DNA of 64,000 nt from Escherichia coli (GTDB taxonomy: Bacteria; Pseudomonadota; Gammaproteobacteria; Enterobacterales; Enterobacteriaceae). The DNA lies in the NCBI RefSeq assembly GCF_013122565.1, contig NZ_CP053258.1; one strand, written 5' to 3'. The position numbers were made by a program, and so were the translations under genes. Below the pieces are notes generated by a model. The model was not told where the DNA came from. It made no database searches and saw only the letters and a program-made list of their open reading frames with translations. Below are positions 4,869 to 52,594 of the stretch, in pieces (positions within the stretch are counted from its first letter, which is position 1; each line of letters starts with the position of its first letter).

Positions 4869-6268
4869 ACACTCGCCAGCTACTGAGCGTCGGTATCGAT
4901 ATCGGCACTACCACCACCCAGGTGATCTTCTCCCACCTGGAGCTGGTTAACCGTGCGGCGGTGTCGCAGGTGCCGCGCTACGAATTCATCAAACGCGAAA
5001 TTAGCTGGCAAAGCCCGGTGTTCTTTACCCCTGTCGATAAACAGGGTGGTTTAAAAGAAGCGGAACTGAAAACCTTAATCCTCGAGCAATATCAGGCTGC
5101 GGGCATTGCGCCGGAAAGCGTTGATTCTGGTGCCATCATCATCACCGGTGAAAGCGCGAAAACCCGCAATGCTCGCCCGGCGGTGATGGCGCTCTCCCGG
5201 TCGCTGGGCGATTTTGTCGTCGCCAGCGCCGGGCCGCATCTCGAATCCGTGATCGCCGGTCACGGTGCCGGGGCGCAAACCCTTTCTGAACAACGGCTGT
5301 GTCGGGTCCTGAATATCGATATCGGCGGTGGCACCGCGAACTACGCCCTGTTCGATGCCGGAAAAATCAGCGGTACTGCCTGCCTCAACGTCGGCGGTCG
5401 CCTGCTGGAAACCGACAGCCAGGGGCGCGTGGTTTACGCTCATAAACCGGGGCAGATGATTGTGGATGAGTGCTTCGGCGCAGGCACCGACGCCCGTTCG
5501 CTGACCGGCGCGCAGCTGGTGCAGGTTACCCGGCGGATGGCAGAGCTGATTGTCGAAGTGATTGACGGAACGCTTTCGCCGCTCGCGCAGGCATTAATGC
5601 AAACCGGTTTGCTGCCCGCAGGTGTTACGCCCGAAATCATTACGCTTTCTGGCGGCGTGGGCGAATGTTATCGCCACCAGCCCGCCGACCCGTTCTGTTT
5701 TGCCGATATTGGCCCGCTGCTGGCAACGGCGCTGCATGACCATCCGCGCCTGCGTGAGATGAACGTGCAGTTTCCGGCGCAAACCGTGCGTGCCACGGTG
5801 ATTGGCGCGGGGGCACATACCCTTTCGCTCTCTGGCAGCACAATCTGGCTTGAGGGCGTACAACTGCCGCTGCGCAATTTGCCGGTGGCGATCCCGATTG
5901 ATGAAACGGATCTGGTGGGTGCCTGGCAACAGGCGCTGATTCAGCTGGATCTTGATCCCAAAACTGACGCGTACGTGCTGGCGCTTCCCGCCTCGCTGCC
6001 TGTGCGTTACGCCGCGGTACTGACGGTCATCAACGCGTTGGTCGATTTCGTCGCGCGTTTTCCGAATCCGCATCCCCTGCTGGTGGTGGCCGGGCAGGAC
6101 TTTGGTAAAGCTCTGGGCATGTTGTTGCGCCCACAGCTACAACAACTCCCGTTGGCAGTCATTGACGAAGTGATTGTCCGCGCGGGGGACTATATCGACA
6201 TTGGTACGCCTCTTTTTGGCGGATCGGTTGTGCCGGTGACGGTGAAATCACTCGCATTTCCTTCCTGA
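4865..6268 (+). CDS. eutA: Ethanolamine ammonia-lyase reactivase EutA
   Basis: 467-aa ORF; GTG start overlapping eutH stop (GTGA); eut synteny. Confidence 0.92.
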   Translation: MNTRQLLSVGIDIGTTTTQVIFSHLELVNRAAVSQVPRYEFIKREISWQSPVFFTPVDKQGGLKEAELKTLILEQYQAAGIAPESVDSGAIIITGESAKTRNARPAVMALSRSLGDFVVASAGPHLESVIAGHGAGAQTLSEQRLCRVLNIDIGGGTANYALFDAGKISGTACLNVGGRLLETDSQGRVVYAHKPGQMIVDECFGAGTDARSLTGAQLVQVTRRMAELIVEVIDGTLSPLAQALMQTGLLPAGVTPEIITLSGGVGECYRHQPADPFCFADIGPLLATALHDHPRLREMNVQFPAQTVRATVIGAGAHTLSLSGSTIWLEGVQLPLRNLPVAIPIDETDLVGAWQQALIQLDLDPKTDAYVLALPASLPVRYAAVLTVINALVDFVARFPNPHPLLVVAGQDFGKALGMLLRPQLQQLPLAVIDEVIVRAGDYIDIGTPLFGGSVVPVTVKSLAFPS

Positions 6269-13682: not shown

Positions 13683-13703
13683 CGCAGAGGTGCGCTTTGT
13701 TTA

Positions 13704-13802
13704 TGCCGGATGCGGCGTGAACGCCTTATCCGGCCTACAAAACATCGAAAATTCAATATATTGCAGGAGAAAGTAGGCCTGATAAGCGTAGCGCATCAGG
13801 CA
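13704..13802. repeat. REP/BIME cluster in yfeZ-yfeY intergenic
   Basis: Two REP cores in opposite orientation (tgccggatgcggcgtgaacgccttatccggcctac ... gtaggcctgataagcgtagcgcatcaggc). Confidence 0.8.
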
Positions 13803-13888
13803 ATTTTGTGTTTGTCATCAACCTTTAACGGCACTTTTTGGTGAATTTGAACTCCAAGCAACGTTATTGAATAACCAAAGGAAGTGAC

Positions 13889-14475: not shown

Positions 14476-15459
<984 letters not shown>

Positions 15460-15482
15460 GCGTTTCTGATTCGATGATGAAA

Positions 15483-15520
15483 GGCCAGGCAGTAACATTA
15501 CTGACTGGCCTTTTTATTAC
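15483..15520. terminator. Bidirectional hairpin terminator between convergent yfeX and yfeW
   Basis: Long imperfect inverted repeat ggccaggcagtaacattactgactggcc flanked by A/T runs. Confidence 0.55.
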
Positions 15521-16818
15521 TGCTTTAACGCCGCATATACCTGATCAACAACCCAACCATAAGTTGCAATCGGCAACTGACCGCTTTCGAACATATTGGG
15601 ATTTTTTTGTGGATCGGCAACGGGTGAATGTGGCTTGTTGCTTAACATCACAATCGCCATATGATTCACCGGATCGATAACGGTTACCGTCCCGGTCCAA
15701 CCTGTGTGACCGTAGGTTTGCGGGCTTGCCAGCGTGCCAAACGTCGGCGTCATGGTGGCATTACCATTCACGCGCCAGCCGAGGCCAAAAGTGGCATCTT
15801 CCTTAGAGCTGGTGGTGAACATCTTCACCGTTTCCGCACTGAACAGCTGCACATCGCCATAGCCACCGCCGTTCAGCATCGTTTGCATTAACACCGCAAT
15901 ATCGCCGGTATTGGAAAACAAACCTGCGTGCCCGGAAACGCCGCCCATCGAATAAAAGGCTTTTTCATCGTGCACCTGACCCCAGAGAGTGGAGGTGCGG
16001 ATATTCGGGAAGTGGATCACGCCATCGCGGGTATTGCCGTTCAATTCTGTGGCGGCAATTTGTTGCGGTTTAAAGCCTTTCAGTAGCGGATTAAACACCG
16101 TATGCGTCAGACCGAGCGGGCGATAAATCGACTCTTCAACATAGCGGTCAAGCGGCTGACCGGTGACCGACTCGACGATAAATCCAAGCAGCATATAATC
16201 GACATCACTGTAAATATGCTTGCTGCCGGGCTGATACTCCAGCGGCGTGCGCTTGATCATCTCCAGCGTCTGGCCTTTATCCTGGGAATATAACGCGCCC
16301 GCGACCGCTTTATTCGGGTATTGCGGGTCCGCCGGGAAACCGCCGCTGTGATGCAGCAGATCAGAAATCCGCAGGGTGTTTTTGCCTTTAATCGCATCGT
16401 TCGCGCCATCGGCAAATCCCGGAATATATTTCGCAATCAGATCGTCAGGATGCAGCTTGCCTTCGCTCATTAGCTTTTGCAGAGCGAAGTTAGTGGCGTA
16501 CATCTTGGTGTTTGAGGCTAGATCATACAGCGTCCCGGTGGTGGCTTTTACCGGCTGCGCCATCAATACGCTGCCATCGTACTTTTTCGCCGCGCCCCAG
16601 GCTTTGCGATACACAATCTGATTATCTTTAATAATCAGCAGGTTTACGCCGGGATAACCGGCATCAACTTGCTGGCTTATCCAGCGATCCATCTGGTTAA
16701 GCCGTTCGACGTTGAACCCTGCTTTCTCTGGCGAACTTTCTGTCAGAACAGGGTATTTTGCGGCGCTGACGCTACAACTAACAGCCAGCAGAGAAAGATA
16801 GAGCATTGTCCGTTTCAT
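15517..16818 (-). CDS. yfeW: Penicillin-binding protein 4B (class C beta-lactamase fold) YfeW
   Basis: SxxK motif (SNTK) seen; start placed at ATG 16818 (MKRTMLYL..., signal peptide), 4 nt downstream of murP stop; track ORF begins at an upstream TTG. Confidence 0.88.
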   Translation of the reverse strand: MKRTMLYLSLLAVSCSVSAAKYPVLTESSPEKAGFNVERLNQMDRWISQQVDAGYPGVNLLIIKDNQIVYRKAWGAAKKYDGSVLMAQPVKATTGTLYDLASNTKMYATNFALQKLMSEGKLHPDDLIAKYIPGFADGANDAIKGKNTLRISDLLHHSGGFPADPQYPNKAVAGALYSQDKGQTLEMIKRTPLEYQPGSKHIYSDVDYMLLGFIVESVTGQPLDRYVEESIYRPLGLTHTVFNPLLKGFKPQQIAATELNGNTRDGVIHFPNIRTSTLWGQVHDEKAFYSMGGVSGHAGLFSNTGDIAVLMQTMLNGGGYGDVQLFSAETVKMFTTSSKEDATFGLGWRVNGNATMTPTFGTLASPQTYGHTGWTGTVTVIDPVNHMAIVMLSNKPHSPVADPQKNPNMFESGQLPIATYGWVVDQVYAALKQ

Positions 16819-16822
16819 AATA

Positions 16823-18247
<1,425 letters not shown>

Positions 18248-26287: not shown

Positions 26288-26371
26288 GCCTGATGTGCCA
26301 CGCTTATCAGGCCTACAAGGTTTCTGCAATATATTGAATTAGCACGATTTTGTAGGCCGGATAAGGCGTTT
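26288..26371. repeat. REP/BIME cluster downstream of cysM (left portion; interrupted by IS)
   Basis: PU copies gcctgatgtgccacgcttatcaggcctac and tgtaggccggataaggcgttt; the last unit continues after the IS as acgccgcatccggc. Confidence 0.8.
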
Positions 26372-27126
<755 letters not shown>

Positions 27127-27230
27127 ATCAGCATACTTGTCCTTAGCCTTCTGCAGTGACAGCTGGTAGTACAGCGTGCTTCTGGCCAGCCCTGCAGCCT
27201 TTAACAGGTCAGACTGGCAGTGTCCGCACT

Positions 27231-27761
27231 TCAGGCTCTGGATGACTTTCGTTTTTTCTCCAGCTCCTGGCGCTTTTTTTCCAGGAGATGCTCCTGCATG
27301 GCTTTCAGATATGCATTTTCTGCGCGAAGATAACGCAGCTCATTCTTCATCTCTTCCGGCGTCATGTTTGCCTCGTTTTCATGGGTATCATCAGAACGGG
27401 TCATGCTTTTCTCCTTCCTGCGCCTGATAAAGGCCTCATTACCAGATTTGCGGTAGCCTTTTATCCAGTTTTTAACCATGTTGTGGCTGGGAATGTTAAA
27501 CCGGGCAGCTACCCGGGGTAGAGACTCAGAATGCCCGAGAGCATAAAGAACCACGCAAAGTTTATCTTCAGGAGAATAGCTACGCTTGTGTCTGCAATCC
27601 AGTGCCTGAGGACCGTGAAGAAGAAAAAGATTAATCCAGTGTGAGAGGCTGGTGTGAGAAAGTTGAAAGAGTTTTGCCGTAGAAAGGATGCCTGCATGAC
27701 CGGCCAGGTAATGATTTACAGCGGCAAGTTTTACTTCAAATGAATGTTTCATAAACTGCAC
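27231..27761 (-). CDS. IS transposase OrfA (HTH + leucine-zipper region)
   Basis: 176-aa ORF; C-terminal heptad-like LRYLRAENAYLKAMQEHL; contains slippery heptamer near its 3' end. Confidence 0.8.
   Translation of the reverse strand: MQFMKHSFEVKLAAVNHYLAGHAGILSTAKLFQLSHTSLSHWINLFLLHGPQALDCRHKRSYSPEDKLCVVLYALGHSESLPRVAARFNIPSHNMVKNWIKGYRKSGNEAFIRRRKEKSMTRSDDTHENEANMTPEEMKNELRYLRAENAYLKAMQEHLLEKKRQELEKKRKSSRA
27274..27280 (-). other. Programmed -1 ribosomal frameshift slippery heptamer A_AAA_AAG (orfA to orfB)
   Basis: Minus-strand codons GAA AAA AAG CGC within orfA (..LLEKKRQEL..) read directly. Confidence 0.6.
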
Positions 27762-27803
27762 CTTCAGATGTCAGATTATGTCCAACATTTGGGGTGCAGT
27801 TCA

Positions 27804-39422: not shown

Positions 39423-39939
39423 AAAGACTCCAGATGATCGATGCTTTCATTGTGCGTTGTTCTGATTGATAAATAAAACTGAATTGCTTATCAATTTGTG
39501 CGCGAGGAGTGTGAGTGAGTTGCTCGCTCGCTTCGACTGGTTGGCAGAGCGGGGGAGGATATCCCGGATGAGACAAATAAGACGTTCGACAAGAGAATCA
39601 GGTGACTACAGAAAAAATCACAGGATGTTATTACTGCTGATGTTCATGTCGGTTTTCGCGTTATCAGAACTGGTTTTAGAACTGCTATTTAATCGATAAT
39701 GCCATTCTGCAGGAAAGCTTTACCTACTTTATTATTTGCGGTGTGGTAAAACCTGGTCACCAGAGGCAGGTTTAATACCAGACGCTGTCTTTTATCAGAT
39801 ATCCCATGTAAATAATAAATGCAATGAATATTAATTCATTATGTATTTATTTTGTGATTGTTTGGTGTTACTAGTTTGTTGGACAAATAACAACTCTAAC
39901 TAATACATAAACCTTGCATAGTGACAGAGTATCGATCTG

Positions 39940-39977
39940 AATGTTTTCAACATTGATATCAAATTGCAATTGATATC
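39940..39977. promoter_or_regulatory. Candidate operator upstream of the NupG-like transporter: inverted repeat ATGTT-ttc-AACAT followed by two TTGATATC palindromes spaced 17 bp
   Basis: Read directly: gaATGTTttcAACATTGATATCaaattgcaaTTGATATCcg, 75-110 bp upstream of the 40051 start. Confidence 0.35.
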
Positions 39978-40050
39978 CGTGGTAAAAAGTATTGGTAAAT
40001 TTGATGAATTTCCGGATATTTAAAGGGGCGGCTCAAAGACGAAGGGGAAG

Positions 40051-41307
40051 ATGGTGAATCTAAAACTACAGTTAAAAGTTCTTTCATTTCTGCAATTCTT
40101 TTTGTGGGGAAGTTGGCTCAACACATTCGGTTCTTATATGTTTATCACGCTGCGTTTTAAGGGCGAAGATATAGGCGCAGTCTACAGTACACTGGGTATC
40201 GCAGCATTAATAACATCAACGTTATTTGGTATCGTGGCCGATAAATGGATTAGTGCTAAATGGATATATGCCGCTTGTCATTTATTTGGCGCGATAACAT
40301 TATTTATCGCAGCATCGGTTACCACGCCTTCGGCAATGTTCATTGTCATTTTACTTAACTCTCTTGTGTATATGCCAACACTCGGTTTGAGTAATACAAT
40401 TTCCTATTACCGCCTACAAACAGCGGGGATGGATATTGTGACAGAATTTCCGCCAATCCGTATCTGGGGCACGATTGGATTTATTGTCGCAATGTGGGCG
40501 GTTAGCCTGGCTGGTTTTGAATTAAGTCATATGCAATTATATATCGGTGCGGCGGCTTCATTAGGCTTGAGCCTGTTCACGTTGACTTTACCAACTGTAC
40601 CAGTGGCGAAATCTAACCAGGCGCAAGGAATGATAGATGTTCTCGGATTGCGTGCATTTACACTGTTTAAAAACAGCAAAATGGCGATTTTCTTTATCTT
40701 TGCCATGCTGCTCGGGGCAGAGTTACAAATTACCGGGATGTTTGGTAATACATTTCTCCACAGCTTTGAGAGCGTTCCAGAGTTTACCAATAGTTTTGTT
40801 GTTACCCATGCTTCTATTCTGTTATCAATTTCTCAGATATCCGAAGTCTGTTTCATTCTTGCCATTCCTTTTTTCCTGAAAAAATACGGTATCAAAAATG
40901 TCATGCTGATGAGCATGGTGGCCTGGATGCTGCGTTTTGGTTTATTCGCTTATGGCGATCCTTCATTCGGTGGTACCATTCTGTTAATTCTTTCGATGAT
41001 TGTTTATGGCTGTGCTTTTGACTTCTTCAATATATCTGGCTCGGTATTTGTTGAACAAGAAGTTGATCCATCGATTCGTAACAGCGCTCAGGGCGTTTTC
41101 CTGATGATGGCCAATGGTTTTGGTTGTATTCTGGGCGGTTTTATCAGTGGTAAAGTCGTCGATTATTTAACAACGGATGGCAATCCACAGTGGTCAACCA
41201 TTTGGCTGGTATTTGCCGGATATTCACTGGTTCTGGCTCTCGCATTTATGGTGTTGTTTAAATATAAACACAACGGTAACCCGACAACGTCCGGTCATTT
41301 CGCCTGA
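40051..41307 (+). CDS. Nucleoside:H+ symporter, NHS family (NupG/XapB paralog)
   Basis: 418-aa 12-TM-like ORF; near-collinear similarity to recalled NupG and to XapB encoded 2 kb downstream (e.g. LQFFLWGSWL, FPPIRIWGTIGFI, GCAFDFFNISGSVFVEQEV). AT-rich codon usage. Confidence 0.85.
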   Translation: MVNLKLQLKVLSFLQFFLWGSWLNTFGSYMFITLRFKGEDIGAVYSTLGIAALITSTLFGIVADKWISAKWIYAACHLFGAITLFIAASVTTPSAMFIVILLNSLVYMPTLGLSNTISYYRLQTAGMDIVTEFPPIRIWGTIGFIVAMWAVSLAGFELSHMQLYIGAAASLGLSLFTLTLPTVPVAKSNQAQGMIDVLGLRAFTLFKNSKMAIFFIFAMLLGAELQITGMFGNTFLHSFESVPEFTNSFVVTHASILLSISQISEVCFILAIPFFLKKYGIKNVMLMSMVAWMLRFGLFAYGDPSFGGTILLILSMIVYGCAFDFFNISGSVFVEQEVDPSIRNSAQGVFLMMANGFGCILGGFISGKVVDYLTTDGNPQWSTIWLVFAGYSLVLALAFMVLFKYKHNGNPTTSGHFA

Positions 41308-41361
41308 TACGGAGTTTATCAAAATTAATAATGTTTTATAGGATTCGCAAAAGAGGAAGTT

Positions 41362-42273
41362 ATGGCAAATCAATTGTATAACCAGTGTCGGGTTTATTGT
41401 GCACCCTGGCGATTAGATGCTTTAAATTTAAATGATATCATTGATCAATGGATTGACGAGGGGCTGTTGCCGCCCCTGATCCATACTTTTCTTCCATATC
41501 GCGATGATGCCGGTGCCTCCAGTGAAGAAGAGATTTTTGTTAACGATGTCGCGAATATGGATAACAGTGTTGGGGTTATCGGTTATTTCGATGGTGGAAC
41601 CTATGATTCCGGTTATGCATGGGCTTTAGGGATGCCTGTTCACCTGGTAACGACAGACTTTCTTATATGGGCAGCGGGGAATTCTTCAGAGTTTTATCCT
41701 ATAAGTAAGCTGATGAATTATGTGGCAAAAGTGGTTTCTGTGTCAGATTCCGATACCAGTATCAGCAATTATCGTGAACAAACCGACGATATCATCAAGC
41801 GTGCGTTGCAAATTTTTCAACAAAATTTAATCGCCGACTTCGGCACGACGATTAATCCAGCAGTACCGGTTACTCCATTGCCGATTGAGTATGACTACTA
41901 TATTGATCCTAACTTTATGTATACCGAACCCTCTCGGGACTTACTGGTGAAGATCAAAGATGCGATCATTAGTGCAGGTAAGACTTTCATCGTTGGCGAC
42001 AACATGAATGATATTGCGACTGATATTGATAACTTAAGAAAATCCAGACAGGCCATCTTTTATTCCGATACCTTTGAGCCGAATGTTGACACCGGCATTA
42101 TGAATGGTATTGCCTATGCATTAGGACAGCAATCGATTATTTATTGTAGCAAGCAACAAAAATATCAATCTGCGCTCGCGACAGATTATTTAAATTTAAT
42201 GATTACCTGGTCGTCAACGGTGGCGCATTCATTTGCGGAACTTGAAACATTGATTGGTAACACAGAAAAATAA
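41362..42273 (+). CDS. Hypothetical protein with two tandem nucleoside 2-deoxyribosyltransferase-like repeats
   Basis: 303-aa ORF with RBS agaggaag; internal repeat ([DS]G..[YI]A[WY]ALG at ~aa 80-95 and ~aa 255-270) resembling the NDT/DNPH1 D-x-G-..-E-x-G-Y-A-x-A-x-G-K-P-V motif. Fold assignment is inference. Confidence 0.6.
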   Translation: MANQLYNQCRVYCAPWRLDALNLNDIIDQWIDEGLLPPLIHTFLPYRDDAGASSEEEIFVNDVANMDNSVGVIGYFDGGTYDSGYAWALGMPVHLVTTDFLIWAAGNSSEFYPISKLMNYVAKVVSVSDSDTSISNYREQTDDIIKRALQIFQQNLIADFGTTINPAVPVTPLPIEYDYYIDPNFMYTEPSRDLLVKIKDAIISAGKTFIVGDNMNDIATDIDNLRKSRQAIFYSDTFEPNVDTGIMNGIAYALGQQSIIYCSKQQKYQSALATDYLNLMITWSSTVAHSFAELETLIGNTEK

Positions 42274-42284
42274 TAGTTAATTTT

Positions 42285-42330
42285 ACTGATTATCAGGTGA
42301 GTGATTGCCTGATAATCAGCTTTTTGTTAG
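42285..42330 (+). terminator. Rho-independent terminator after the 303-aa gene
   Basis: Perfect 12-bp inverted repeat CTGATTATCAGG...CCTGATAATCAG followed by ctttttg. Confidence 0.65.
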
Positions 42331-42501
42331 CCACCAAAGAAAAATATACTGCCGTTATATTTCTCTGCCGGGGAACGATATGATCGATTTCAAAATTATA
42401 TTGAATATCTCTGGAAAATGTATTGGTCACTCGCGACTTTTTCTCGCTATAAAAAAATGTGACTCAGATCTAACGCATAATGCTTATTACAAGGACTTGC
42501 C

Positions 42502-43335
42502 ATGACCCAATCTCATTTTTCACAAAACCCGTGGTATTGCGCAGATATCATTCGTCGTCATAAACCAGACTTTACCCCACGCGTTGCGTTTATTTTGGGT
42601 TCGGGACTGGGAGCGCTGGCTGAACAAATAGAAGACGCAGTTGCCATTTCTTATAGCGATTTGCCGGGGTTTCCGGTGAGCACCGTACACGGCCATGCAG
42701 GAGAGTTGGTCCTCGGCGTGCTTTCTGGTGTGCCTGTAGCCTGCATGAAAGGTCGCGGTCATTTTTATGAGGGCCGGGGAATGACTGTCATGACTGATGC
42801 TATTCGCACGTTCAAGTTGCTGGGCTGTGAATTGTTGTTCTGCACTAACGCTGCAGGTTCGCTTCGCCCGGAAGTAGGGGCGGGTAGTCTGGTTGCGCTG
42901 AAAGATCACATTAATACGATGCCAGGCACACCGATGACAGGCCTTAATGATGAGCGTTTTGGTGAACGTTTTTTCTCATTAGCGAATGCTTACGATGCTG
43001 ATTACCGCGCCGTTTTACAAACCGTCGCGCATGAAGAAGGTTTTCCGCTGACAGAAGGGGTTTTTGTTTCTTATCCGGGGCCGAACTTCGAAACGGCGGC
43101 AGAAATTCGCATGATGCAGCTGTTTGGTGGCGACGTAGTAGGTATGTCTGTAGTGCCTGAAGTGATTAGCGCACGTCATTGCGAAATGAAAGTCGTTGCC
43201 GTGTCAGCAATAACCAACATGGCGGAAGGCTTAAGCGATGTGAAATTGTCGCATGCCCAAACCCTGGCTGCAGCAGAGTTATCACGACAAAACTTTATTA
43301 ATTTGATTTGCGGATTCTTACGCAAAATCGCCTGA
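42502..43335 (+). CDS. xapA: Xanthosine phosphorylase (purine nucleoside phosphorylase II) XapA
   Basis: 277-aa PNP-family ORF; xapAB-xapR synteny. Confidence 0.93.
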   Translation: MTQSHFSQNPWYCADIIRRHKPDFTPRVAFILGSGLGALAEQIEDAVAISYSDLPGFPVSTVHGHAGELVLGVLSGVPVACMKGRGHFYEGRGMTVMTDAIRTFKLLGCELLFCTNAAGSLRPEVGAGSLVALKDHINTMPGTPMTGLNDERFGERFFSLANAYDADYRAVLQTVAHEEGFPLTEGVFVSYPGPNFETAAEIRMMQLFGGDVVGMSVVPEVISARHCEMKVVAVSAITNMAEGLSDVKLSHAQTLAAAELSRQNFINLICGFLRKIA

Positions 43336-43392
43336 AAACAATAAAAATGGCCTCGCGGATGGGGCCATCTCTCTGCGATAAGGAAACGAAAA

Positions 43393-44640
43393 ATGAATAT
43401 CGCAACGCGTTTAAAGGTAATGTCTTTCTTACAATATTTTATCTGGGGGAGTTGGTTAGTTACCCTCGGATCTTACATGATAAACACCTTACATTTTACC
43501 GGGGCTGATGTCGGTATGGCATACAGTTCTAAAGGCATTGCGGCCATTATTATGCCAGCCATTATGGGCATTATTGCCGATAAATGGTTACGGGCTGAAC
43601 GTACCTATATGCTGTGTCACTTAATTTGTGCCGGGGTGCTTTTTTATGCCGCCTCCGTAACTGAACCGAATATGATGTTCTGGGTGATGTTGCTTAACGC
43701 GATGGCTTTCATGCCCACGATTGCGTTATCCAACAGTGTTTCCTATTCGTGCCTGGCGCAGGCCGGATTAGACCCAGTCACCAGTTTTCCGCCAATCCGT
43801 GTTTATGGCACCGTGGGATTTATTGTCGCAATGTGGCTGGTGAGTTTATTGCATCTGGAGTTAAGTAGTGTGCAGTTGTATATCGCTTCTGGAGCATCTT
43901 TAGTGTTAGCGATCTATGCATTAACATTACCGAAAATTCCAGTGGCGGAACATAAAGCCAGTACGACGCTTTCCAGTAAATTAGGCCTGGATGCGTTTGT
44001 GTTATTTAAAAATCCGCGTATGGCGATTTTCTTTTTATTTGCTATGTTATTAGGTGCGGTACTGCAAATTACTAACGTTTTTGGTAATCCTTTCCTGCAT
44101 GACTTTGCCCGCAATCTTGAGTTTGCTGATAGCTTCGTGGTGAAATATCCATCCATTTTGCTCTCGGTTTCACAAATGGCGGAAGTCGGCTTCATTCTTA
44201 CCATTCCATTCTTCCTGAAGCGTTTTGGCATCAAAACCGTCATGTTGATGAGTATGGTAGCGTGGACGTTACGCTTTGGCTTCTTTGCCTTTGGCGACCC
44301 ATCGGCAGGTGGCTTTGTATTATTGTTGTTGTCGATGATTGTGTATGGCTGCGCGTTCGACTTTTTCAATATCTCCGGTTCAGTGTTTGTCGAGCAAGAA
44401 GTGGACTCCAGGATCCGCGCCAGCGCTCAGGGTTTATTTATGACTATGGTCAATGGCGTTGGGGCGTGGATTGGTTCTCTTCTGAGTGGCATGGCAGTTG
44501 ACTATTTCACGGTTGATGGCGTGAAAGACTGGCAAACCATCTGGCTAGTATTTGCTGCGTATGCACTGGCCTTAGCGGTGATTTTTGCCCTGTTCTTCCG
44601 TTATAAGCATGAACCTGATAAATGGCGCAGAAATCATTGA
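43393..44640 (+). CDS. xapB: Xanthosine permease XapB (NHS family)
   Basis: 415-aa membrane ORF downstream of xapA. Confidence 0.93.
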   Translation: MNIATRLKVMSFLQYFIWGSWLVTLGSYMINTLHFTGADVGMAYSSKGIAAIIMPAIMGIIADKWLRAERTYMLCHLICAGVLFYAASVTEPNMMFWVMLLNAMAFMPTIALSNSVSYSCLAQAGLDPVTSFPPIRVYGTVGFIVAMWLVSLLHLELSSVQLYIASGASLVLAIYALTLPKIPVAEHKASTTLSSKLGLDAFVLFKNPRMAIFFLFAMLLGAVLQITNVFGNPFLHDFARNLEFADSFVVKYPSILLSVSQMAEVGFILTIPFFLKRFGIKTVMLMSMVAWTLRFGFFAFGDPSAGGFVLLLLSMIVYGCAFDFFNISGSVFVEQEVDSRIRASAQGLFMTMVNGVGAWIGSLLSGMAVDYFTVDGVKDWQTIWLVFAAYALALAVIFALFFRYKHEPDKWRRNH

Positions 44641-44716
44641 CTCACTGATGTAAACAGGGTTTTCCTTGATTGCAATGTGCTAAGTTTGCAGCCTTACCCA
44701 TACCGCGTGGAGCGCA

Positions 44717-45607
44717 ATGATTATGGAAGGTACGCATCGTATTGATCTCAAGTTATTGCGCTATTTTCTTGCGGTCGCAGAAGAACTTCACTTTGGGCGG
44801 GCCGCTGCGCGGCTGAATATGTCGCAACCGCCATTAAGTATTCATATTAAAGATCTGGAGCAACAGTTGGGCACGTTGCTGTTCGTTCGTCATTCGCGCA
44901 GTGTGGCGCTCACTCATGCGGGGAAAATTTTACTGGAAGAGTCACGTCGTCTGCTGGCTAATGCCAGTCAGGCGTTGGCACGAGTAGAACAGATCGGTCG
45001 TGGTGAGGCAGGGCGCATTGAGCTGGGCGTGGTGGGAACCGCAATGTGGGGGCGAATGCGTCCGGTAATGCGGCGGTTTTTGAAAGAGTGCCCTAATGTT
45101 CATGTCTCATTTCGTGAAAAATCACCAGGGATGCAAATGGCATTGCTCGAGCGGCGGGAGCTGGACGCGGGTATCTGGCGGATGGCAATTGAACCCACGA
45201 CGGGATTTACCAGTCTGCGATTACACGAATCTTCGTTTTTGGTGGCGATACCGGAAGATCATCATCTGGCTTGCGAAAACGCTATCCCGTTAATGGCATT
45301 ACGCAATGAATACTTTGTGACGCTGCCATCGGTCCATTCCGACTGGGCGTTTTTACAGCGTGTCTGTCAGCAGGCAGGGTTTTCACCGATGATCGTTCGG
45401 GAGGCCGTAGAACCGCAAACCGTACTGGCGATGATCAGTATGGGGCTGGGTGTGACATTAATGGCAGATAGCTATGCCCAAATGAGCTGGCCGGGTGTGG
45501 TATTTCGTCCACTCGAGGAACGTATTCCAGCAGATTTGTATATTGTTTATGAACAGCAACAGGCAACACCAGCGCTGGAGAGATTAGTTAATGCTTTGAT
45601 AGCATGA
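44717..45607 (+). CDS. xapR: LysR-family regulator XapR
   Basis: 296-aa ORF with N-terminal LysR HTH (LKLLRYFLAVAEELHFGRAAARLNMSQPPLS); exact start uncertain. Confidence 0.85.
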   Translation: MIMEGTHRIDLKLLRYFLAVAEELHFGRAAARLNMSQPPLSIHIKDLEQQLGTLLFVRHSRSVALTHAGKILLEESRRLLANASQALARVEQIGRGEAGRIELGVVGTAMWGRMRPVMRRFLKECPNVHVSFREKSPGMQMALLERRELDAGIWRMAIEPTTGFTSLRLHESSFLVAIPEDHHLACENAIPLMALRNEYFVTLPSVHSDWAFLQRVCQQAGFSPMIVREAVEPQTVLAMISMGLGVTLMADSYAQMSWPGVVFRPLEERIPADLYIVYEQQQATPALERLVNALIA

Positions 45608-45626
45608 AAGAAGATATCGCAGATAG

Positions 45627-49152: not shown

Positions 49153-51342
49153 ATGTTTGTGGAGCATAACCTGATAAAAAATATCAAGATATTCACACTA
49201 GCGTTTACGCTCACCGTGGTACTTATTCAGCTATCCCGTTTTATTTCGCCACTTGCTATTATCCATTCCAGTTATATCTTTCTGGCGTGGATGCCACTGT
49301 GCGTAATGCTGTCAATCTTGTTTATCTTTGGCTGGCGCGGTGTCGTTCCCGTTTTATGCGGAATGTTTTGCACCAATCTGTGGAACTTTCATCTCTCTTT
49401 TTTACAGACTGCGGTCATGCTCGGCAGCCAGACGTTTGTCGTGTTGTGTGCCTGCGCAATATTACGCTGGCAGCTAGGGACGCGTTGGCGTTATGGATTG
49501 ACCAGCCGATATGTCTGGCAACGTCTGTTCTGGCTTGGTTTGGTGACGCCGATCGGCATCAAATGCAGCATGTATCTTGTGGGGAGCTTCTTTGATTTCC
49601 CGCTAAAGATTTCCACCTTTTTCGGCGATGCGGATGCCATTTTCACGGTCGTTGATTTGCTAAGCCTTTTCACCGCGGTGCTGATTTACAACATGCTTTT
49701 CTACTATCTCACTCGCATGATTGTAAGTCCCCACTTTGCGCAGATATTGTGGCGCAGGGATATCGCTCCGTCGTTGGGCAAAGAGAAACGCGCATTTACC
49801 TTAAGCTGGCTGGCAGCGTTAAGCGTGCTGCTACTTCTGTTGTGCACACCTTATGAAAACGACTTTATTGCCGGTTACCTGGTACCCGTTTTCTTCATCA
49901 TCTTTACCCTCGGGGTCGGTAAGCTTCGCTATCCGTTTTTAAATCTCACCTGGGCTGTTTCAACGCTTTGCCTGCTGAATTACAACCAGAACTTTTTACA
50001 AGGGGTGGAAACCGAATATTCGCTGGCATTTATTCTCGCGGTGCTGATTTCCTTTAGCGTTTGCCTGCTCTATATGGTGCGCATTTATCATCGCAGTGAA
50101 TGGCTTAATCGACGCTGGCATTTGCAGGCGCTGACCGATCCGTTAACGCTCCTACCCAACTTTCGTGCGTTGGAACAAGCACCGGAGCAAGAGGTGGGCA
50201 AGAGTTTTTGCTGCCTGCGCATTGATAATCTTGAGTTTATGAGTCGTCATTACGGGTTAATGATGCGCGTTCACTGTATCCGCTCAATTTACCGTACGCT
50301 GCTGCCGTTGATGCAGGAAAACGAAAAGTTGTATCAATTGCCGGGCAGTGAACTGCTGTTAGTGCTGAGCGGGCCGGAAACGGAAGGGCGACTCCAGCAT
50401 ATGGTTAACATCCTGAATAGTCGGCAAATTCACTGGAACAATACCGGGCTGGATATGGGCTATGGTGCTGCCTGGGGGCGTTTTGATGGAAATCAGGAAA
50501 CCCTGCAACCCTTGTTGGGGCAGTTAAGCTGGCTGGCGGAGCAATCCTGCGCACATCATCATGTGCTGGCGCTGGATAGCAGAGAGGAGATGGTTTCCGG
50601 GCAGACCACTAAACAAGTGCTATTGCTGAATACCATTCGCGCGGCGTTAGATCAGGGGGATTTGCTGCTCTACGCCCAGCCCATTCGCAACAAAGAGGGT
50701 GAAGGTTATGATGAGATCCTCGCGCGACTGAAATATGACGGCGGCATTATGACCCCGGATAAGTTTCTGCCCCTTATTGCTCAGTTTAACCTTAGCGCGC
50801 GTTTTGATTTGCAAGTGCTGGAATCCCTGTTGAAGTGGCTTGCAACACACCCTTGCGACAAAAAAGGTCCACGCTTTTCAGTCAATTTAATGCCGCTCAC
50901 GCTGCTGCAAAAGAATATTGCCGGGCGGATTATTCGTCTGTTTAAGCGTTATCACATCTCCCCGCAGGCGGTCATTCTTGAGATCACCGAGGAGCAGGCG
51001 TTTTCTAACGCAGAAAGCAGCATGTACAACATCGAGCAGCTGCATAAGTTTGGTTTCCGGATTGCGATTGATGACTTTGGCACCGGCTATGCCAACTACG
51101 AACGGTTAAAGCGTTTGCAGGCTGATATCATCAAAATTGATGGCGTCTTTGTGAAAGATATCGTCACGAACACGCTGGATGCGATGATTGTGAGATCAAT
51201 TACCGATCTGGCGAAAGCGAAGTCATTGAGTGTGGTCGCGGAGTTTGTCGAGACGCAACAGCAGCAGGCGCTATTGCATAAGCTCGGGGTGCAATATCTG
51301 CAAGGGTATTTGATTGGTCGCCCGCAGCCATTAGCTGATTAA
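49153..51342 (+). CDS. pdeA: c-di-GMP phosphodiesterase PdeA (YfeA): MASE1 membrane sensor, degenerate GGDEF, EAL
   Basis: Track ORF 49093-51342 trimmed to ATG 49153 (MFVEHNLIKNIKIF...), 729 aa; EAL-domain motifs (EIL..., DDFGTGYANY) seen. Confidence 0.9.
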   Translation: MFVEHNLIKNIKIFTLAFTLTVVLIQLSRFISPLAIIHSSYIFLAWMPLCVMLSILFIFGWRGVVPVLCGMFCTNLWNFHLSFLQTAVMLGSQTFVVLCACAILRWQLGTRWRYGLTSRYVWQRLFWLGLVTPIGIKCSMYLVGSFFDFPLKISTFFGDADAIFTVVDLLSLFTAVLIYNMLFYYLTRMIVSPHFAQILWRRDIAPSLGKEKRAFTLSWLAALSVLLLLLCTPYENDFIAGYLVPVFFIIFTLGVGKLRYPFLNLTWAVSTLCLLNYNQNFLQGVETEYSLAFILAVLISFSVCLLYMVRIYHRSEWLNRRWHLQALTDPLTLLPNFRALEQAPEQEVGKSFCCLRIDNLEFMSRHYGLMMRVHCIRSIYRTLLPLMQENEKLYQLPGSELLLVLSGPETEGRLQHMVNILNSRQIHWNNTGLDMGYGAAWGRFDGNQETLQPLLGQLSWLAEQSCAHHHVLALDSREEMVSGQTTKQVLLLNTIRAALDQGDLLLYAQPIRNKEGEGYDEILARLKYDGGIMTPDKFLPLIAQFNLSARFDLQVLESLLKWLATHPCDKKGPRFSVNLMPLTLLQKNIAGRIIRLFKRYHISPQAVILEITEEQAFSNAESSMYNIEQLHKFGFRIAIDDFGTGYANYERLKRLQADIIKIDGVFVKDIVTNTLDAMIVRSITDLAKAKSLSVVAEFVETQQQQALLHKLGVQYLQGYLIGRPQPLAD

Positions 51343-51350
51343 CAGGCGTA

Positions 51351-51382
51351 AAAAAGCCGGGGAATTATCCCCGGCTTTTTTA
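51351..51382. terminator. Bidirectional terminator between convergent pdeA and nupC
   Basis: aaaaaagccggggaattatccccggctttttt. Confidence 0.75.
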
Positions 51383-51391
51383 TGTATGGTC

Positions 51392-52594
51392 TTACAGCAC
51401 CAGTGCTGCGATTGACGCCGACAGCACACTCACCAGGGTAGAGCCGTAAACCAGTTTCAGACCGAAGCGAGAAACCACGTTACCTTGCTCTTCATTCAGG
51501 CCTTTAACTGCACCTGCGATAATCCCGATTGATGAGAAGTTAGCGAAGGAAACCAGGAACACAGAGATGATGCCTTCAGCACGCGGAGAGAGCGTGGAAG
51601 CAATTTTCTGCAGATCCATCATCGCAACGAACTCGTTGGAAACCAGTTTGGTCGCCATGATACTGCCCACTTGCAGTGCTTCACTGGAAGGAACACCCAT
51701 CACCCATGCAATCGGATAGAAGATGTAGCCCAGGATGCCCTGGAAGGAGATGCTGTAGCCAAACCAGCCAGTCACGGTGGCAAACAGTGCGTTCAGCGCG
51801 GCGATCAGGGCGATAAAGCCAATCAGCATTGCGGCAACGATAATGGCAACTTTGAAACCTGCCAGAATGTATTCACCCAGCATTTCGAAGAAGCTCTGAC
51901 CTTCGTGCAGGTTGGACATCTGAATGTTTTCTTCACTGGCATCAACACGGTAAGGGTTGATCAGCGACAGCACGATAAAGGTGCTGAACATGTTAAGTAC
52001 CAGCGCCGCAACGACATATTTCGGCTCCAGCATGGTCATGTATGCACCAACGATGGACATAGAAACGGTGGACATCGCCGTTGCTGCCATGGTGTACATA
52101 CGATTGCGGGAGATTTTGCCGAGGATATCTTTATAGGCAATAAAGTTTTCAGACTGACCCAGAATCAGGGAGCTGACGGCGTTAAAGGATTCCAGTTTGC
52201 CCATACCGTTGACTTTGGAGAGCAGGAAACCAATTGCGCGGATAATCACCGGCAACACGCGAATGTGTTGGAGAATACCGATCAGTGCAGAGATAAAGAC
52301 GATTGGGCACAGCACTTTCAGGAAGAAGAATGCCAGGCCTTGATCATTCATGCTACCAAAGACGAAGTTAGTCCCTTCGTTGGCAAATCCGAGCAGTTTT
52401 TCGAACATTTCGGAGAAGCCTTTCACGAAGCCTAAACCAACGTCGGAGTTCAGGAAGAACCACGCCAGTAACACTTCGATAACAAGCAGTTGAATAACAT
52501 AACGGATACGAATTTTTTTGCGGTCGCTGCTTACCAGCAGTGCGAGAATCGCAACAACGGCAAGTGCCAGTACAAAATGAAGGACGCGGTCCAT
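51392..52594 (-). CDS. nupC: Concentrative nucleoside transporter NupC (CNT family)
   Basis: Track ORF trimmed to ATG 52594 ([14 protein letters not shown]...), 400 aa. Confidence 0.93.

Follow-up and report, generated by a model that had tools for sequence, protein, structure and literature searches.

An empty IS186 target site within a predicted bidirectional terminator between pdeA and nupC in a non-K-12 Escherichia coli

Results

Organization of the pdeA–nupC junction

The DNA analyzed here is a 64-kb stretch of an E. coli genome, which is referred to below as the window. Within it, the genes pdeA and nupC face each other across a short gap, and the features of this region, with the evidence on which each was assigned, are listed below.

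49153–51342, + strand: pdeA (yfeA), putative c-di-GMP phosphodiesterase, 729 aa, with a TAA stop codon at 51340–51342 (ORF list)
51343–51391: intergenic gap of 49 bp between the convergent pdeA and nupC stop codons (sequence and ORF ends)
51350–51381, both strands: predicted bidirectional intrinsic (Rho-independent) terminator, a 32-bp perfect palindrome (folds and sequence)
51359–51372: GGGG-AATTAT-CCCC, canonical IS186 target motif, unoccupied (terminator stem and centre)
51360–51371: GGGAATTATCCC, a 12-mer present once, the empty site (MG1655 and EA7 junctions, BLAST overlap)
51392–52594, - strand: nupC, nucleoside:H+ symporter, 400 aa, with its stop codon at 51392–51394 (ORF list)

The name pdeA is the one used in the annotations of matching E. 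coli genomes. When translated from the K-12 start positions, PdeA was identical to MG1655 b2395 at 726 of 729 residues, and NupC matched MG1655 b2393 at all 400. The gap reads CAGGCGT-AAAAAA-GCCGGGG-AATTAT-CCCCGGC-TTTTTT-ATGTATGGTC.

A predicted bidirectional terminator in the gap

There is one perfect palindrome in the gap, AAAAAAGCCGGGGAATTATCCCCGGCTTTTTT (51350–51381). Its parts are an A6 tract (51350–51355), a stem arm GCCGGGG (51356–51362), a loop AATTAT (51363–51368), the opposite stem arm CCCCGGC (51369–51375) and a T6 tract (51376–51381). The stem begins 14 nt past the pdeA stop codon and 16 nt past that of nupC, and on both strands a U-tract lies directly 3' of the stem, provided by T6 (51376–51381) on the + strand and by the complement of A6 (51350–51355) on the - strand. 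Stability of the RNA fold was compared with that of 200 dinucleotide-preserving shuffles for each strand. The palindrome folded at -31.9 kcal/mol on the + strand (z = -6.9) and at -26.8 kcal/mol on the - strand (z = -5.6), and in both cases 0 of 200 shuffles were as stable.

A GC-rich hairpin with a U-tract on each strand corresponds to the classical structure of a bidirectional intrinsic terminator. The element in the window is like the bidirectional Rho-independent terminators that lie between convergent bacterial genes, with one GC-rich hairpin between an A-tract and a T-tract, and we found no structural difference from known terminators of this type, its function here being predicted from sequence. 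Judged by these features, the hairpin should terminate both convergent transcripts. The initial annotation had described the two genes as only 49 bp apart and the gap as holding a single GC-rich bidirectional terminator. Both statements agree with our analysis: the ORF ends delimit exactly 51343–51391, and the gap has one hairpin with A6 and T6 flanks that folds stably on both strands.

Other searches of this region gave the following results. A consensus terminator scanner listed the site on the - strand only, with a truncated stem, and Rfam at its gathering threshold reported no RNA family within the pdeA–nupC gap. A promoter-like match at 51339–51368 was disregarded; it agreed with the consensus at 9 of 12 positions and fell inside the terminator, and 2 such matches were found where 1.1 were expected by chance.

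The corresponding locus of MG1655 is occupied by IS186

In the annotation of MG1655 (NC_000913.3), the gene order is nupC (b2393), IS186C (2514273–2515617) with insL3 (b2394), and pdeA (b2395). According to the initial annotation, K-12 carries a copy of IS186 (insL) between nupC and yfeA/pdeA and the window does not. We checked MG1655 for a junction free of an IS, and found IS186C with insL3 annotated at precisely this place. The window, for its part, has an uninterrupted gap, and the 23-bp terminal inverted repeat of IS186, CATAAGCGCTAACTTAAGGGTTG, had 0 matches in the whole 64 kb with up to 3 mismatches allowed.

The boundaries of the insertion were examined in the orientation of the window. 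In MG1655, GTAAAAAAACCGGGGAATTATCCC meets ATAAGCGCTAACTTAAGGGTTG at one IS end, and CAACCCTTAAGTTAGCGCTTAT meets GGGAATTATCCCCGGCTTTTTT at the other. The 12-bp sequence GGGAATTATCCC occurs on both sides of the 1,337-bp body of IS186C, and BLAST aligned the window with MG1655 in two colinear pieces whose overlap is precisely this 12-mer (window 51360–51371). When the IS was removed from MG1655 along with one of the two 12-mers, the sequence of the window was obtained with 2 mismatches in 120 bp (118/120 identical). The single copy of the 12-mer, the rebuilt junction and the lack of an IS186 repeat in the window together therefore define a clean, scar-free empty site. Thus, the window and the MG1655 IS186C locus share the same flanking genes and the same insertion point, and the window has the pre-insertion sequence. 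It differs from MG1655 in having no IS186, an intact palindrome, and G rather than A at position 51356, with which the stem is perfectly paired, whereas the K-12 counterpart of the terminator is split by IS186.

Different placements of the IS ends give different lengths for the target-site duplication. Counted in one way, it is a 6-bp core (Lee et al.), and counted in another, up to 12 shared bp; in the MG1655 annotation, the element measures 1,345 bp. No publication linking IS186 with nupC or yfeA was found in a literature search.

The terminator stem and loop match the IS186 target motif

The target of IS186 is 5'-GGGG(N6/N7)CCCC-3', and only 19 loci of the N6 type are present in the K-12 genome (Lee et al. 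2016, PMC5009759). The consensus was first reported by SaiSree et al. 2001, as cited in Lee et al. 2016 (PMC5009759). Since the motif is palindromic, new insertions of IS186 at a given site occur in either orientation, and one site received as many as 16 independent hits (Lee et al. 2016, PMC5009759). We found that GGGGAATTATCCCC, at 51359–51372, is an exact GGGG-N6-CCCC match and the sole one in the 64-kb window; the N7 version of the motif was absent from the same 64 kb. One GGGG-N6-CCCC in a sequence of this length is not statistically unusual (chance expectation 0.57).

In MG1655, CCC joined to ATAAGCGC was read at the junction of all three K-12 copies of IS186. Comparison of the three copies suggests that terminator-like hairpins with a G4/C4 stem may be natural targets of this element.

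With regard to the location of the two other copies, IS186A (within 15250–16900 of MG1655) is found in GGCGGGG-ATCACT-CCCCGCC just downstream of dnaJ. IS186B (within 607000–608800) follows GGGG-AGTAAT-CCC downstream of hokE, one (left) junction being read for this copy.

Conservation of the empty site

The empty-site sequence was almost invariant across the nine E. coli genomes compared, which included B2, O157 and other strains far from K-12. Over the whole 49-bp gap, eight complete E. coli genomes other than that of the window showed next to no variation. Across the palindrome, E2348/69, JJ1886, O157:H7 F8492, FDAARGOS_1262, VE-T9 and XJ5.2 were identical to the window, and variation among the nine genomes was limited to G/A at 51356 and an A-tract longer by one A. 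Position 51356 is the first base of the stem. It is G in the window and in the B2/O157 strains, and A in K-12, EA7, no107 and CNR65D6, where the lowest pair of the stem is an A-C mismatch. The A allele is also found with empty sites (no107 and CNR65D6), and it therefore predates the insertion. Compensatory variation in the hairpin was sought in the same nine genomes, among which the element is so nearly invariant that covariation is uninformative.

A collection of species-representative genomes was also scanned with the 32-bp palindrome, with A or G permitted at the polymorphic base. The sole match was a 289-bp contig assigned to Alkalicoccobacillus porphyridii, and the scan was set aside as it offered no cross-species comparison. 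This contig (NZ_VLXZ01000152.1, 289 bp, approximately 1.4x coverage) consists of E. coli pdeA–nupC sequence with an empty IS186 site, and is most likely contamination by a non-K-12 E. coli.

Distribution of empty and occupied sites among complete genomes

To describe the junction at the level of the species, 5,426 complete E. coli genomes were searched with a 1,049-bp empty-site query centred on the gap. The junction was uninterrupted in 4,460 of them (82%). IS186 in the K-12 orientation was scored with 200 bp across each of the two MG1655 junctions, fully matched, and was detected in 472 and 474 genomes for the two junctions, respectively, among the 5,426. This set contained K-12 derivatives as well as natural isolates, for example, 510016 from human and B25FEP from chicken (99% identity). 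Besides, matches ending 26 bp into the IS first showed a second class of occupied alleles, in which the element has the opposite orientation. The corresponding junction was present in 467 of the 5,426 genomes, including ATCC 8739, ML35, WG5 and many clinical isolates. In EA7, for instance, IS186 is inserted at the same position and has the same GGGAATTATCCC flanks on both sides, in reversed orientation. In total, IS186-occupied alleles at nupC–pdeA account for about 17% of complete E. coli genomes. The nupC–pdeA terminator is thus a natural IS186 hot spot, and empty is its majority state. Like the hot spots of Lee et al., the nupC–pdeA site is occupied in both orientations, here across other genomes; it was already filled in the K-12 founder used by these authors and could not be scored there, and its status as a hot spot rests on natural genomes.

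Approximately 25 remaining genomes had other states of the junction, such as Stbl4, with IS2 inside IS186, and ST2747 (NZ_CP007394.1), where nupC is absent and pdeA adjoins the gene for the mntH leader peptide, after which comes mntH.

These data bear on two other ways in which an empty site could appear in the window. First, the site might once have held IS186 and lost it by precise excision, with restoration of the terminator. Such an event would regenerate exactly the sequence seen in the window, with one 12-bp copy and no scar, and occupied alleles are common enough (~17% of genomes) to have served as a starting point. However, among 857 IS events in 520 mutation-accumulation lines, there was a single IS excision, of an IS3 (Lee et al. 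2016, PMC5009759). The empty allele is found in 82% of complete genomes and hardly varies among nine genomes that include strains distant from K-12, and the two genomes closest to the window, XJ5.2 and VE-T9, are also empty. We consider prior occupancy and excision very unlikely. Second, the absence of IS186 might be an artefact, the copy having collapsed out of the source assembly, as IS copies are a common cause of errors in short-read assemblies. Yet collapse of a repeat normally breaks the contig at the IS, whereas here the junction is seamless, with one copy of the 12-mer and a perfect palindrome; the same seamless junction was found in 4,460 complete genomes, and the assembly runs without a break through a copy of IS1397 elsewhere in the window. 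An assembly error of this kind is hardly credible. A locus that was never occupied is the reading that we adopt.

Origin of the two orientations

When reverse-complemented, the IS of EA7 was identical to IS186C at 1337 of 1337 positions, and the flanks of EA7 were 99.9% identical to those of MG1655. The backgrounds in which the two orientations arose were therefore closely related. They are most economically explained as separate insertions, as we infer from the behaviour of the element described by Lee et al. The identities just given, together with the stem G-to-A variant that EA7 and MG1655 have in common, might also be expected if there had been one ancestral insertion that was later flipped in place. 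However, near-identity is the rule for IS186 copies within one genome, so that identity does not discriminate between these possibilities, and the A variant is also found with empty sites, in no107 and CNR65D6. Moreover, no mechanism is known by which one IS with 23-bp terminal repeats could invert where it stands. Lee et al. 2016 (PMC5009759) saw new IS186 insertions arrive at a given site in either orientation, and recorded as many as 16 independent hits at a single site. In-place inversion is, in our opinion, improbable, and separate insertions are preferred.

Relationship of the window to K-12

The window is colinear with MG1655 2571848–2501636, in reversed orientation, at 96.0–98.3% identity per block. 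CPZ-55, the 6.8-kb cryptic prophage of K-12, is absent: window positions 6261–6268 join MG1655 2565481 (eutA side) to 2558698 (eutB side), and the eut operon is uninterrupted in the window. In addition, a 1,432-bp insertion at 26372–27803 is located in the yfeS–cysM intergenic region (MG1655 2538549–2538552), and this segment shares 99.7% identity with elements that carry the annotation IS3-like IS1397 in other genomes of the species.

An Rfam match to the sRNA ES036 (CssrF), at 26309–26351, adjoins the IS1397 copy. Between yfeY and yfeZ, the window has approximately 140 bp more than MG1655 (13685–13825), with REP/BIME-type units GCCGGATGCGGCGTGAACGCCTTATCCGGCCTACA and TAGGCCTGATAAGCGTAGCGCATCAGGCA.

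The xap region (39485–45615) is replaced or strongly diverged, with xapA, xapB and xapR showing ~70–77% nucleotide identity to K-12. Judging from the annotation of XJ5.2, which is 98.6% identical, yfeR and yfeN are probably replaced by genes for a nucleoside permease and a nucleoside 2-deoxyribosyltransferase. This variant appears to be rare, most E. coli genomes covering only ~84% of a 24.9-kb query that includes the block. The best matches to window 39001–63900 among the 5,426 genomes were XJ5.2 (bovine, China) and VE-T9 (Vietnam), at 98.6% over 24.9 kb. With a best match of only 98.6%, the source lineage is therefore sparsely sampled among complete genomes.

Three characters that mark the K-12 lineage, namely IS186C at nupC–pdeA, CPZ-55 between eutA and eutB, and ~100% identity to MG1655, are all missing from the window. 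The initial annotation had assigned the source to a non-K-12 lineage, and this assignment was borne out by the 96.0–98.3% identity, the absence of CPZ-55, the presence of IS1397 and the replaced xap region. The missing IS186, which that assignment had used together with the eut and IS1397 differences, rules out K-12 but is of little further value for placing the lineage. Of the non-K-12 arguments it is the weakest, since most genomes (82%) have the empty site. Occupancy of nupC–pdeA by IS186 is likewise not specific to K-12, as it is found in the opposite orientation in ~467 genomes and in the K-12 orientation also in natural isolates.

Discussion

The observations are best accounted for if the gap is a never-occupied, ancestral form of the locus, in which the hairpin of a predicted bidirectional terminator doubles as an IS186 target, if IS186 entered this site in K-12 and in other lineages, and if the source of the window is non-K-12; we assign this reading a probability of roughly 0.93. 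In the sequence of events that we propose, the G4/C4 stem of the hairpin and its 6-nt centre make up GGGG-N6-CCCC, the sequence that the IS186 transposase recognises. The element inserted into the centre of the hairpin in the K-12 lineage and, probably independently, in reverse in other lineages. Each insertion duplicated the core and split the terminator, and the source of the window would never have received one. The coincidence of the terminator stem-loop with the recognition motif explains why IS186 is found exactly here, in either orientation, in K-12 and in ~940 other complete genomes.

Much of this is already known: the K-12 IS186 insertion and the IS186 target motif are both documented, and the nupC–pdeA junction is here in its ordinary state. 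A modest addition is the frequency with which IS186 is found in this terminator: about 17% of complete E. coli genomes carry it there, and both orientations are represented. These findings are also a reminder that K-12 is without the native nupC/pdeA terminator. Most 3'-end maps were made in K-12. Occupancy by IS186 may remove the sole intrinsic terminator of both genes, and occupied lineages, K-12 among them, may then differ from the majority of E. coli in nupC and pdeA 3'-end formation, read-through or antisense transcription. We put this forward as a tentative suggestion. If true, K-12 would be an atypical reference for nupC and pdeA.
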